A stretch of DNA of 24,962 bases from a virus (lineage: Duplodnaviria > Caudoviricetes), in the IMG/VR virus record IMGVR_UViG_3300017978_000113, positions 1 through 24,962 of that record, one strand, 5' to 3'. The position numbers and the translations under genes were made by a program. Each line of letters starts with the position of its first letter. Within the stretch, counting starts at the first letter, position 1. Under the pieces are notes generated by a model that did not search any database, was not told the DNA's origin, and saw only the letters and a program-made list of their open reading frames with translations. Below are positions 144 through 23,930 of the stretch, one piece after another.

Positions 144-977
144 TTAAAGTCCGCAATATCCTGAATCACAATCGTTGAAATCTTCATCGAACAAATCTAA
201 TTGTAATTTATGGTTTTTTATCTTTTCGTAAGTAACTCCACTTTTAAATGTGCATCCGTTTTTCTGCTCCATATCAATAAACCACTGGAACTTGTTCTCA
301 TCTCTTTGACTCATGTGTTTTAAGAATATCTCTGAACGATGAAAGCATCCAACACAATTATTTTTGTAAGCAAATCGCACAGGTTTATCTTTCCAAAACT
401 GCTCTACTGTATCTTTAAAAATACCTGCTTCAATTAGTGGAAATGTAGCAGTTCTATATGGCAAAGTTTTCCATTTGTTGCGTCCGTTTTTCTCTCCTAC
501 TTTAAACTTAAAATGCTCTACTCCGTCAACTGCTCGGTCAATCATCGTCTTTGCTCTGCTCATTTCATTAGCTCTAAATCCTATTCTCATATCAATTGGC
601 AGTTCTAAGTTCTCATAACACCATTGTGCAATTGGTTCTACTTTCATTTTTGATGTGCAAAATCTACGCATTAAGTTTGGAAGATATCCTCCTGCTTTGT
701 CAATTACATCTTCAAATGTTCTATCGCTTAACCAAACAATCTCGCTTCCGATATATTGCTCTAAATCAAGCATCGTGTAAATAATCGTATCTTCTTCCAG
801 TGTTCCAATGAACTCTTTTCCGATTCTATCGCTTACAATTTGACGCACCTTTGCATCAGGAAACAAACAATTAATGTCATTTGTACGAACAAGAGAAAAG
901 ATGTTGTAATCAGCAGGATAATTTACTGCAATGTAGCTTGATGTTTTACCACCACTTAGTGAGTTTACCGTTTTCAT
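144..977 (-). CDS. PAPS-reductase/PP-loop family protein with Cys-rich C-terminus
   Basis: N-terminal SLSGGKTS PP-loop, RRFCTSKMK, IGFRANE, NNCVGCF and terminal CDSGYCG. Confidence 0.75.
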   Translation of the reverse strand: MKTVNSLSGGKTSSYIAVNYPADYNIFSLVRTNDINCLFPDAKVRQIVSDRIGKEFIGTLEEDTIIYTMLDLEQYIGSEIVWLSDRTFEDVIDKAGGYLPNLMRRFCTSKMKVEPIAQWCYENLELPIDMRIGFRANEMSRAKTMIDRAVDGVEHFKFKVGEKNGRNKWKTLPYRTATFPLIEAGIFKDTVEQFWKDKPVRFAYKNNCVGCFHRSEIFLKHMSQRDENKFQWFIDMEQKNGCTFKSGVTYEKIKNHKLQLDLFDEDFNDCDSGYCGL

Positions 978-1906
978 TAGAAGTTTTTGTTAGCGTGAAT
1001 AGCGTTTATCTTTTGCTCAATCATAGTCATTTGTTTAGGTGGTTTAGGTCTGAAAGGCTTCAACGGGTCTTGTCCATTTATTGTAAAGCCTAATCCACTA
1101 TTAAAATCACACATAATAAAATCATCTAATGCAGTAATCTTTCCACCTGTATCTGTGTCCTTTACTTTCTCAACTGATATCAAAGTTACAAATTTCATTG
1201 TTTCGTGTTTAACTAACCTATGAATGACAAACATATCATCACAACGATTTAAGAAAGCCTTACCTCCTTCAATGTGGTCTTTCATTGGTGGTTTAAGATG
1301 TCCTTTCCAATGGTGTTGTTCTCCATAGATATTTCCTGCTCTTCCCGATTCCGTGTTAGGATGCGTGTTTATGTAGATTGATTTACCTGTTTCGTTTACA
1401 AATTGACGTGCAGTATTTAAGAATTTGTAGTTTCCTTCGTATCCCATTTCTCGGTCAAGTCCAGTGTATGGGTCTATCAAACAAGCATGAGCATCAGACT
1501 TTTTAAATATCTCGAATAACTCCATCGGTTTATACAATTTAGAGTTATCAACAAAGTCAAAGAACTGTTCCAGGTAAGTTGAGTAACTGAGAATCTGCTG
1601 CTCGTTTAGTTCTTTGTATGGCTTTCCTGAATAGATTTGAATCATATCTCTTAGTATTTGTCCATATTGATTTTCACCTGACCATAGAATAAAACGTATT
1701 CCGTGCTTTAATGCCAAAGAAAGAAAGTACCAATTAATCCAATACGTCTTTCCAACGTTGTCGTGTCCTAAAATGATTGTAAGTTGTTTAGGTTTATATC
1801 TTAGGTTATCATCTAAGTTGCAATCTAATCCTAATCCTTGTTTAATTCTTCCTGCTTTGTAGTCCAACAGATACTGTTGAGTGCTACCTTTACTTAATAT
1901 ATCCAT
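977..1906 (-). CDS. replicative helicase (DnaB/SF4 RecA-fold)
   Basis: Walker A GHDNVGKT, Walker B-like CLIDPY, NTHP and KVK motifs; directly follows the initiator-like gene. Confidence 0.75.
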   Translation of the reverse strand: MDILSKGSTQQYLLDYKAGRIKQGLGLDCNLDDNLRYKPKQLTIILGHDNVGKTYWINWYFLSLALKHGIRFILWSGENQYGQILRDMIQIYSGKPYKELNEQQILSYSTYLEQFFDFVDNSKLYKPMELFEIFKKSDAHACLIDPYTGLDREMGYEGNYKFLNTARQFVNETGKSIYINTHPNTESGRAGNIYGEQHHWKGHLKPPMKDHIEGGKAFLNRCDDMFVIHRLVKHETMKFVTLISVEKVKDTDTGGKITALDDFIMCDFNSGLGFTINGQDPLKPFRPKPPKQMTMIEQKINAIHANKNF

Positions 1907-3967: not shown

Positions 3968-4001
3968 AGCTTTTAATTTTTGTTTGTGAACTAATTATAT
4001 G

Positions 4002-4031
4002 CAAATATAGAAATAAGGTTTCAATTATCAA
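4002..4031 (-). promoter_or_regulatory. Bacteroidota sigma70 promoter (early)
   Basis: minus strand TTG-N19-TATATTTG, an exact match to the Flavobacterium/Bacteroides TTG-N19-TAnnTTTG consensus. Confidence 0.8.
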
Positions 4032-4093
4032 CAATTTTTTTTATCTTTTTTACATTTATTTTTAAAACGCTTGATTTTACAAGGGAAAATTTA

Positions 4094-4380
4094 TACCCGA
4101 TGAGGTACTTACGTATAGGAATTGGAGGTAAAACGTACCCGATAAGGTGTAAAATACTTAATTGTATGGAAAAGCGTATAATTTTCGTATAAATACGGAT
4201 AAATGCGTATACAAAATCCAATAAATCGAAATAGTGGCAAATGTTTGTGATAAAAATGTCCAGTAAATTGTCACAAAAACTGGACAAATATGTTACAGAA
4301 TGTCTCAAATATCTGCTAAATATGCGACACAATTATTTGTAAAAGTGTGACACTTGCTATTTATTAAGGGTATATCCTTA
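4094..4380. repeat. non-coding array of short direct and inverted repeats
   Basis: TACCCGATRAGGTR at 4094 and 4136, GCGTATA x2, interlocked inverted repeats 4244-4286, TGTnnCA-like heptamers about 11 bp apart, AAGTGTGACACTT, TAAGG-N6-CCTTA. Confidence 0.65.
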
Positions 4381-4412
4381 CAAAGGGGTGTTCGCTTTAA
4401 GATTATAGCCAT

Positions 4413-4450
4413 AAAAAAAAGGAGCATCGCTTTCAACTGACACTCCTTTT
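4413..4450 (-). terminator. intrinsic terminator ending the late/lysis region
   Basis: GGAGUGUC/GAUGCUCC stem followed by U8. Confidence 0.85.
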
Positions 4451-4472
4451 AAAAACTAAAAGCTATGATTAG
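4413..4472 (-). ncRNA. candidate ~60-nt antisense sRNA (or 3'UTR element) targeting early-gene start regions
   Basis: TACATTTG box at 4475-4482, then UCAUAGCUUUUAGUUUUU (4468-4451) complementary to starts at 3967, 3806 and 3606, then a terminator. Confidence 0.55.
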
Positions 4473-4482
4473 TGCAAATGTA

Positions 4483-22154: not shown

Positions 22155-22314
22155 CACGAATCATATCATACGCAGCACATAGCATCTTGAAATGTAAACG
22201 CATTTTCATAGGCTCATCAAAGATAATCTTTATTTTCTTTCCAGTCATTACGTAGATGTAATCCTCCACTACCGCCTTAAGCATTGGAAGGTCATCTGAT
22301 GTTGTATTGTCCAT
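22135..22314 (-). CDS. small hypothetical protein (59 aa, not in ORF track)
   Basis: MDNTTSDDLPMLKAVVEDYIYVMTGKKIKIIFDEP...NNK*; overlaps TerL end. Confidence 0.6.
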   Translation of the reverse strand: MDNTTSDDLPMLKAVVEDYIYVMTGKKIKIIFDEPMKMRLHFKMLCAAYDMIRVQQNNK

Positions 22315-23494
22315 AGTTCTTTTTTAATCCTAAGGTTTCCATCTCGTGATACCTGAGTGCATCAATAGCGTGATTGAAGTGGTCAATAGGTACGTTCTTT
22401 CTTGTACCGTCTTTTGCTACATCCCAACAGTAACTTCTCAACTCCTTAATCAAGTTCTGGCTATCTGCAGTGACTAAGTATTCTTGACGTTGCATAATGT
22501 CAATACCGAATCTAATTGAATCTACTCCCTTTGTTACGCCCTTAATCATTTTGCCGAATCTTCTAATCTCTTCTATTGATTTAGGTTCTGAACTATCAGC
22601 GTAAATCGGTACACTATTTGGGAGCATATTTGCGATGTCAGAGTTAACCATTCCTGTACGGTAGACTACCTCGTTTACTATTCGTTGACCGTTGTAGTTG
22701 TATATCTCAATGATTGATGTAGGGTCATTCGTGTAACCAAAATCCAGTCCTATTCCAATCAACTTAGCTTCGGTTGGTATCTTGTCGATTGATTTCCAAT
22801 TGTCAAAGATTACGCCTTCTAAACTACCTACTTCTCCTAATCCATACACACGCCACCAATTCGCCCAATAAGAACTCGTTGCTGCTTTCTCACGGTTCTT
22901 TTCAATCTGAGATACAATTGATTCATCAAGTGCTTCGTTGTCCTTGTATGTTAAGATAATGAAATCTGAATCAGGTTCGTCTTTTAGTTCCTTATGTACC
23001 CAGAATTCATTGGCTGGATTAAAGTCAAGGAATACTTCCTTTTTTGTACGGATGGCTAACTCATTGTAGGATTCAAAAGTTACGTTGTTGCACTCATTGA
23101 TGTAAAGGATGTCACGCCTTGCTCCTCTGAGTTTAGATGCATCATCTGCTGAGAAGAACTCTATTACACTACCGTTTCCAAATTCGTATCTTAGAAGTGA
23201 TTTATTGAATCGGTCATCTATGTAGCGTCCTGTCCATCTCATTATCTTTGTGAAGTCTTTTAATGCTCCTCTTCGTAAGTGAGGAATGGATTCAGCTACA
23301 ACAGAAACTTCTAATCCAGGTTGACGTGTGCATTTGTCTATTAAAATTGGCAGTATGCCAAATGTTTTACCAACATTATCTCCCCCTGTTACTTAATTCG
23401 CAGGGGGATAAAAGGCGGACGTTCCACCCTGAACGATTTTGATTCGTTTTTTCAAGGCGTGAATGCGTCTGATTGCAGTCGTTACTTTAAACAT
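22292..23494 (-). CDS. terL: terminase large subunit (PBSX-like), interrupted by a 42-nt insertion with in-frame TAA
   Basis: ATG 23494 overlaps terS stop; IVQGGTSA[insert]GKTFG Walker A, LRGARRDILYINE Walker B, DFNP, GLDFG and NHAIDALRY nuclease motifs; the ORF-track 316 aa is only the C-terminal part. Confidence 0.9.
23372..23413 (-). other. 42-nt hairpin insertion in TerL Walker A
   Basis: UUUUA-UCCCCCUG-CGAAUUAAGUAA-CAGGGGGA-GAUAAUGUU between GCC (Ala27) and GGU (Gly). Confidence 0.85.
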
Positions 23495-23930
23495 TACTTT
23501 CTTCTTTATCTTCTGATGAGTTAAAATCAAACAATGGTTGCTCTGTTACAATAGTGTTTTCTACCTTCTCAGTTAATCCGTTTAATCGTGCAGTAAGACT
23601 TGCATTGTATTGTCCAACCATACCTCCTGAGATTTGGTCTTGTCTGATTTCTCGCTTTATGTGTGTAGAGATATCGCAAAAATCTTGGTAAGCTCCTTTA
23701 GTATTATGTAAATAATGTTCAACAGTGCATTCAAATTTGTTGTAGCAATACACTTCAAAGCCATCAATGCTGAGTGGACATTCTAAGGGTTCTGCAACCA
23801 TATCTCCTGAGCGTTGGTTCATTACGTATTTGTAACGTGGATTTTCTTTTACATACTCCTTGTATGCTTTGAACATATCTAATAGTTGTTCAGGTGTGTC
23901 TATCTTTCTTGGTCTTCCTCTTTGTGCCAT
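23487..23930 (-). CDS. terS: terminase small subunit (P22 gp3-like)
   Basis: GRPRKIDTPEQL, PLSIDGF, GGMVGQYNASLTARLNGL; directly upstream of terL. Confidence 0.8.
   Translation of the reverse strand: MAQRGRPRKIDTPEQLLDMFKAYKEYVKENPRYKYVMNQRSGDMVAEPLECPLSIDGFEVYCYNKFECTVEHYLHNTKGAYQDFCDISTHIKREIRQDQISGGMVGQYNASLTARLNGLTEKVENTIVTEQPLFDFNSSEDKEESNV

Follow-up and report, generated by a model that had tools for sequence, protein, structure and literature searches.

How might a phage produce its DNA-packaging motor from a gene in which a stop codon and a hairpin split the Walker A motif? This question is raised by IMG/VR record IMGVR_UViG_3300017978_000113, a 25-kb record of an uncultured aquatic phage, analyzed here over its full 24,962 nucleotides (the window), which carries terS, the large terminase gene terL, portal and head protease genes on the minus strand. 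The terL gene starts at ATG 23494, meets a stop after 33 codons and is then open in the same frame to 22292, so that it reads MFKVTTAIRRIHALKKRIKIVQGGTSA-FYPPAN*-VTGGDNV-GKTFGILPIL. It is the sole DNA-packaging motor gene found in the record; no second terL is present there, the record being possibly incomplete, with many relatives on contigs of about 30 kb.

A 42-nt insert (23372..23413, minus strand) sits between the Ala and the Gly of the Walker A motif QGGTSAGKT, the counterpart in alignment of GGRGSGKS in a terminase of solved structure (PDB 4IFE). The 27 upstream codons (23414..23494, minus strand) encode the N-terminus, which is the same in 80 uninterrupted relatives, the first strand and the GGTSA half of Walker A. 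The 359 downstream codons (22292..23371, minus strand) encode GKT, the rest of the ATPase and the nuclease domain; they belong to Terminase_3/3C and are 99% identical to those of the closest uninterrupted relative, L001. The original prediction held that removal of 23372..23413 restores QGGTSAGKT and a 386-aa TerL, and the joined parts do have the same length as the TerL of L001. At Walker A, an insert is absent from all 80 of the closest viral terL loci.

The window insert belongs to a family of terL gaps in which the codon before the gap recurs at its end, a hairpin occupies a fixed position, both coding parts are under selection and a nuclease gene is linked. From these sequence comparisons, we consider it likely that the insert is a conserved noncoding gap in the P-loop that is skipped by programmed translational bypassing and has spread with a neighboring homing endonuclease. 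Bypassing, if true here, would be a very rare way to read a gene.

The insert is found unchanged in other contigs

The identical 42 nt occur in another IMG/VR sequence (L236) and in metagenome contigs L419 and L464, followed by terL bodies that are mostly 65-90% identical to the window per 60-nt block. Contigs of two runs of one study, X4 and X20, bridge the insert with 0 differences inside it and synonymous ones outside. Assembly error was ruled out by the identical insert in other contigs and the unchanged bridging, and the stop-containing insert of the original prediction is thus confirmed. The X4 and X20 data are assembled contigs, probably of DNA, and the absence of a joined form there is therefore uninformative on splicing. 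One contig of run X2 skips exactly 42 nt and is no longer among the matches at stricter likeness; most simply, it is an insert-free relative.

The insert folds into a hairpin (23381..23408, minus strand) in which a C-rich arm (23408-23401) pairs with a G-rich arm (23388-23381) across a 12-nt loop. The 8-bp GC-rich stem described previously, with an in-frame UAA in its loop, was reproduced with a predicted energy of -14.5 kcal/mol (z -2.9), a value equalled by 2 of 200 shuffles. This UAA (23393..23395, minus strand) is the seventh codon after the predicted take-off codon and would limit the peptide to 33 aa. Stops within the insert are likewise present in the +1 and +2 frames, as had been stated and as was seen on the identical insert in L236. 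TAA, described as the usual stop in the window, terminates 20 of its 29 minus-strand open reading frames (ORFs) of at least 100 aa.

Related gaps occur at four codons of the terL Walker A motif

Carriers of related gaps were gathered by four viral pattern scans and one metagenome pattern scan, plus an exact-match scan. The 205 carrier rows, many of them duplicates of the same contig, reduce to 91 junction-plus-flank haplotypes, 68 distinct junctions and 63 gap bodies; a downstream motif filter removed non-terL matches, and a true carrier, L342, was also lost from the count. The gap follows Thr (4 junctions), Ser (13), Ala (38) or Gly (13) in Walker A and is 36-50 nt long, being in frame in 37 junctions and shifted by +1 in 21 and by +2 in 10. 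The downstream TerL of the carriers is 36% to 92% identical to that of the window. The longest gap (50 nt; L252:941-993) has a stem of about 20 bp into which the codon of take-off falls, in a terL whose motif is ASKT, and is an outlier. In another carrier (L462:1521-1560, minus strand), the P-loop would read GGTWAGKT, Trp replacing the otherwise fixed Ser. Eight loci (L324, L330, L336, L373, L341, L443, L433 and L368) have no ATG at the usual terL start in the in-frame translation, and translation may begin a little further upstream, by a few codons and within the nuclease gene, or at a non-AUG codon.

The hairpin stem covaries across the family. In a 65-row alignment, 85% of cells are paired and 81 cells have changed on both sides, exceeding 500 of 500 shuffles and all slid controls, in a test whose structure was derived from the same sequences and whose statistic ignores kinship. 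The insert thus recurs in the same Walker A motif (68 distinct junctions), its stem covaries and 31 of the 68 gaps have lengths not divisible by 3; these were the signs that the original prediction had named, and they favor a hop or an excision. Stop readthrough or a single frameshift was rejected because 31 of 68 gaps shift the frame and 62 of 68 have a stop in the landing frame.

A covariance model built from the gaps matched only the terL site in 77 sources (471 kb), with one match in the window. Scanning for inserts after the Lys codon of the P-loop gave 11 matches, none in terL. A genome-collection scan for the insert pattern gave 26 matches, again with no terL among them, and therefore identified no host. 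Among 401 genomes of one order centered on a Flavobacterium genome, there were 7 terL matches in 4 genomes, none with an insert. A DNA search of cultured phages with the junction returned no match, and the protein search reached at best 53%, with Flavobacterium phages, whose terminases are all single pieces (best 40 of 1165 matches). A generic hairpin scan (119 loci) returned terminator-like hairpins and no useful relative among the matches listed.

The codon preceding the gap recurs at its end

Across the 68 junctions, the pregap codon recurs at the gap end with identity at position 1 in all 68, at position 2 in 61 and at position 3 in 6. Outside the recurring codon, identity is 17/68 at the preceding base and 5/68 at the following base, with flanks at chance, and the codons neighboring the recurring pair match in 2/68 and 0/68. 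The recurring codon shifts along with the insertion site, from Thr through Ser and Ala to Gly. A DNA target duplication or splice-site ambiguity has no need to keep frame at four sites or to leave the third base free, whereas both are to be expected of a tRNA anticodon, the middle G of which can pair with U. All seven second-position exceptions, the window included, are GC to GU.

In the window, the predicted take-off codon is GCC (Ala27; 23414..23416, minus strand), and the predicted landing codon is GUU (23372..23374, minus strand), which would form a second-position G.U pair with tRNA-Ala, decoding resuming at GGU AAA. This assignment, made in the original prediction, fits the rule of a codon recurring in 68 of 68 junctions. 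The GUN landing codon is probably left undecoded because Val was never seen at that P-loop position (0 of 80 loci and 0 of 236 proteins with a readable motif, of 240).

Landing is mostly on GCA, with GUA in five junctions, and tRNA-Ala(UGC) would fit the family better than the tRNA-Ala(GGC) first proposed; a U34 tRNA would suit landing on GCA, GUA, UCA, ACA and GGA. The take-off codon is biased to GCY (39/40, versus 11/67 in uninterrupted genes). We do not take this third-base wobble (Y at take-off, A at landing) as proof of tRNA pairing, because GCA is the commonest codon at that position in uninterrupted genes (50/67) and a hairpin upstream of the gap can account for the Y.

The same data bear on the possibility that a nuclease and ligase, of host or phage origin, or else some unknown tiny ribozyme, excise the hairpin from the mRNA and join the ends, normal terL then being read. 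Excision could remove any length in any frame, would need no stop beside the take-off codon and would suit a hairpin rigidly positioned relative to the 5' boundary. However, the end bases are not conserved, the boundaries starting with A, T or G depending on the site, and it would be unexplained why the repeat keeps to in-frame codon positions 1 and 2 and leaves the third base free. In addition, a cut before the repeat would leave Val in the P-loop in 7 junctions, and the gaps have no Rfam match. We therefore regard excision as unlikely.

Other hops can also be drawn on the window insert. One leads from the AAU before the loop UAA to the AAU before GUU, adding 7 residues, and another from the Gly of QGG to a Gly in the G-rich arm, giving QGGDNVGKT, which is also of the form GxxxxGKT. 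The Asn pair noted in the original prediction does exist in the window; it is perfect and has an A-site stop, features shared by only 10 of 68 junctions (twice as AAU/AAC), and the GCC/GUU pair of the window is weak by comparison. However, in close relatives of those inserts a stop at codon +2 precedes the Asn codon, and extra residues in the P-loop are unlikely to be tolerated. The Gly route is ruled out by a stop directly before the landing codon in 9 of 38 Ala-class inserts, and Thr-Ser-Ala is conserved upstream of the gap. Such hops are thus very unlikely compared with take-off at the recurring codon.

The 3' half of the insert (23372-23386, minus strand) reads GGDNVGKT in the landing frame, and the Walker A motif of a primase/helicase gene at 977-1906 (minus strand) is GHDNVGKT. 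This likeness is probably due to chance, as other inserts differ or stop there.

[quoted passage not shown] Positions +8 to +10 are C-G pairs in 63 of 63 gap bodies, and the upper stem varies among all pair types. From the end of the G run to the landing codon, the distance is 4-11 nt in 67 of 68 junctions; this spacer is AU-rich (median, 78% AU), and in 64 of 68 the landing codon offers the earliest matching dinucleotide past the G run. As for in-frame stops, 8 junctions have the first at codon +1, 29 at +2, 28 at +6 to +13 and 3 only past the gap.

Together, the G run and the AU-rich spacer look like a ribosome binding site, and TerL could on that basis consist of two separate products, a short N-terminal peptide and a C-terminal protein whose synthesis restarts behind the Shine-Dalgarno (SD)-like arm. 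This is extremely improbable: only 6 of 68 junctions offer ATG, GTG or TTG in frame, and the window offers none, the break would fall in the middle of the P-loop and the recurring codon would have no explanation.

In the Ala class, the coding sequence up to the take-off codon folds as a small hairpin (median, -6.4 versus -1.3 kcal/mol in uninterrupted genes), which is weak in the Thr, Ser and Gly classes. In the window, it is predicted at 23412..23430 (minus strand), with the take-off codon in its 3' arm. Two pairings named downstream of the insert are present in the predicted window fold, but the 45 nt downstream of the gap fold no better in carriers than in uninterrupted genes (median, -4.9 versus -4.7; P = 0.77).

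The gaps are linked to nuclease genes and both coding parts are conserved

An HNH (NUMOD4 plus HNH_3) or GIY-YIG-like gene lies directly upstream of terL in 39 of 74 carriers versus 3 of 64 noncarriers, counted on distinct downstream proteins with enough sequence, with GIY-YIG scores below the Pfam cutoff and with uninterrupted controls drawn only from the window's close relatives, which weakens the comparison. The uninterrupted terL genes of L025, L068 and L038 have a GIY-YIG-like or HNH gene directly upstream; a nuclease can thus sit there without an insert. The exact insert of the window is accompanied by an upstream HNH gene in L263 and L419. In the window itself, no nuclease gene or remnant was found upstream of terL: terS (23487..23930, minus strand) overlaps the terL start, the endonuclease gene between the two being absent.

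Between the window and L001, identity is 92.5% up to 23530 and 89.6% from 23371, with a nonaligning 158-nt block between (23372..23529) that holds the terS 3' end, the terL 5' part and the insert. Both flanks align, and this is the shape expected if the insert and its near flank entered by recombination. A mosaic boundary lies near 23530, close to the 3' end of terS, where the L001 alignment ends and where contigs from two runs are broken or rejoined. In a FastTree tree, from which only interleaving was read, carriers and noncarriers interleave, the noncarrier label needing at least 7 changes, 5 of them forced by strong branches. The window and L001, and likewise L445 and L072, are near-identical carrier/noncarrier pairs. 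The regulatory switch on DNA packaging put forward in the original prediction is unsupported; the nuclease linkage points instead to a selfish cassette.

Both coding parts appear to be maintained. None of the 205 carrier loci has an internal stop in the downstream terL frame, short rows all ending at contig or locus ends. The median ratio of nonsynonymous to synonymous changes (dN/dS) downstream of the gap is 0.043 in 74 carrier pairs versus 0.062 in 675 noncarrier pairs, and that of the upstream 23 codons is 0.077 (196 carrier pairs). The upstream peptides of carriers resemble those of uninterrupted genes.

These results bear on a reading in which the insert kills terL: carriers would be defective, would depend on co-infecting relatives for packaging and would keep the insert solely through homing and recombination. 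The interleaving and the near-identical pairs indicate that gene bodies are often exchanged, which could keep dN/dS low, and the lack of a cultured carrier, the nearest cultured phage being at 53%, would also suit a dead gene. However, none of the 205 loci has decayed, and the recurring codon and fixed geometry would be unexplained. Moreover, the nearest uninterrupted protein to that of the Gly-class carrier L324 is only 70% identical (8000 scored). We consider a dead terL quite improbable.

A proposed model for bypassing of the terL gap

Programmed bypassing would proceed as follows. With peptidyl-tRNA-Ala on GCC, the hairpin would stand at the mRNA entrance and slow the ribosome. The peptidyl-tRNA would unpair from GCC, the ribosome would cross the hairpin without decoding, and the tRNA would re-pair at the first compatible triplet after the G-rich arm, GUU in the window. 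From GGU onwards decoding would continue, and the product would be a 386-aa TerL with QGGTSAGKT. Ribosomes failing to hop would terminate at the UAA in the loop, releasing a peptide of 33 aa. At the DNA level, the insert would disrupt the nuclease target in terL and be carried over during repair; since the insert would break the target, carriers would be immune. In the window genome, the insert is present and the nuclease absent.

Several observations weigh against this model. The window's own pair, GCC to GUU, is among the weakest matches, and the upstream hairpin, rather than tRNA pairing, can be the cause of the GCY bias at take-off. The 68 junctions are related rather than independent, 27 of them being 42 nt long, and the GC to GU cases perhaps represent 2-3 events. 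Because the scan patterns demanded the usual flanking codons, and in two scans also CCCC and GGGG, blunt or divergent inserts may be missed. Two carriers (L403 and L424) were reassigned by hand to the Ser class, where the geometry fits. Only 8 of 68 junctions place a stop in the A site, with 21 different A-site triplets overall (UUU in the window). The G run looks like an SD sequence, yet it forms one arm of the stem, and it is doubtful that Bacteroidia use the anti-SD, which their ribosomes sequester according to two reports (PMC10798248; PMC7797042). A Bacteroidia host is only guessed, from the Flavobacterium phages whose terminases are the nearest cultured ones (53%). No cultured carrier was found among the phages searched, which counts for the dead-gene alternative, and 35 of 74 carriers have no nuclease, while 3 noncarriers have one.

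Other features of the window and the survey

A PAPS-reductase-like gene (phrog_424; 144-977, minus strand) adjoins the helicase gene. Between the early and lysis genes lie about 500 nt (3968-4482) with just one weak TTG-started ORF, possibly a control region. Elsewhere in the survey, a prophage-like terL (L513; G072:C10) has 8 internal stops and an intact Walker A motif, with three intact copies in the same genome.

Comparison with known systems

Long programmed bypassing is established in few natural systems, namely T4 gene 60 with its homologues and the byps of yeast mitochondria; the Hau3 terminase is a supported candidate. A literature search for hairpin gaps in the terminase Walker A motif, in which subscription journals were thinly covered, found no paper. 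On the sequence evidence, the terL gaps are real, appear to be functional and probably represent a new variety of programmed bypassing.

T4 gene 60 has a 50-nt bypass, and MobA-linked homologues are described in two reports (10.1101/2022.08.31.505936; 10.1101/2024.12.09.627546). The likenesses are a gap of comparable length that interrupts an essential gene of a phage, take-off and landing codons that match but leave the third base free, a site that moves by one codon between clades, a G-rich motif and AU-rich spacer before landing, and linkage to HNH or GIY-YIG nucleases, whose loss need not remove the gap. The T4 mini-SD lies about 6 nt before landing; in 67 of 68 junctions, the terL G run, which doubles as a stem arm, stops 4-11 nt short of landing. 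The likeness is one of layout, and no sequence similarity is claimed. In contrast, T4 gene 60 encodes a type II topoisomerase, hops from Gly or Asp rather than from four amino acids and has a stop directly after take-off, found here in just 8 of 68 junctions. Its take-off codon lies in the 5' arm of the hairpin, whereas in all 68 terL junctions it lies upstream of the main hairpin, the C run following 5-7 nt on. The terL gaps also lack a conserved tetraloop, allow GC to GU landing and are reached with only 25-28 residues made. The downstream stem-loop that acts as a forward slippage barrier in T4 is predicted in the window but is no stronger in carriers than in noncarriers. We conclude that the terL gaps would work like T4 gene 60 without being a member of that family, differing in gene, +1 stop and hairpin place. 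The T4 bypass sequence is described as protecting from MobA nicking (10.1101/2022.08.31.505936), and by analogy the insert may protect against the neighboring nuclease.

Streptomyces phage Hau3 is described as having a terminase bypass with 7-10 nt gaps and a hungry UUA codon in 3 of 100 genes, with the junction peptide detected by mass spectrometry in E. coli (PMC10732093). The shared element is the large terminase, and the first Hau3 junction, GWG|KD, may be read as Walker A. Unlike Hau3, the terL gaps are 36-50 nt long, contain a hairpin, have no common A-site codon (TTA comes first in 5 of 68) and are linked to nucleases.

The Magnusiomyces mitochondrial byps are skipped sequences of 27-55 nt, likened to small mobile elements, with 81 in 12 genes and an unassigned codon (10.1101/2022.08.31.505936). 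The terL gap differs in occupying one site in one phage gene, in being read by a bacterial ribosome and in having no unassigned codon (21 A-site triplets). The two are alike in insert size and in layout, a hairpin reportedly following the byp take-off codon.

Group I and II introns and inteins in phage terL also lie in conserved motifs and travel with homing nucleases. The terL gaps are far too short for a ribozyme core, and they have no conserved ends and no Rfam match; their stops and frame shifts exclude an intein, in keeping with the original prediction.

Gene callers truncate such terminases, as in P0121, which begins after the P-loop. The 63 natural gap sequences at four adjacent codons offer ready variants for asking what drives take-off without an A-site stop. 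They also let one ask whether a folded hairpin passes unscanned, Gly-class arms being rich in GGN triplets that need to be ignored.

More broadly, we lean towards the view that these gaps represent a new bypass design, widespread and portable. In it, a hairpin 5-7 nt ahead of the P-site codon would drive a 36-50 nt hop without an A-site stop or hungry codon, with at least 4 tRNAs and second-position G.U landing. The gap would be the self-removing, target-breaking half of a terminase homing element, doing an intron's job at one tenth of the size. Beside introns and inteins, such bypassing would give homing nucleases a third route to occupy an essential motif.
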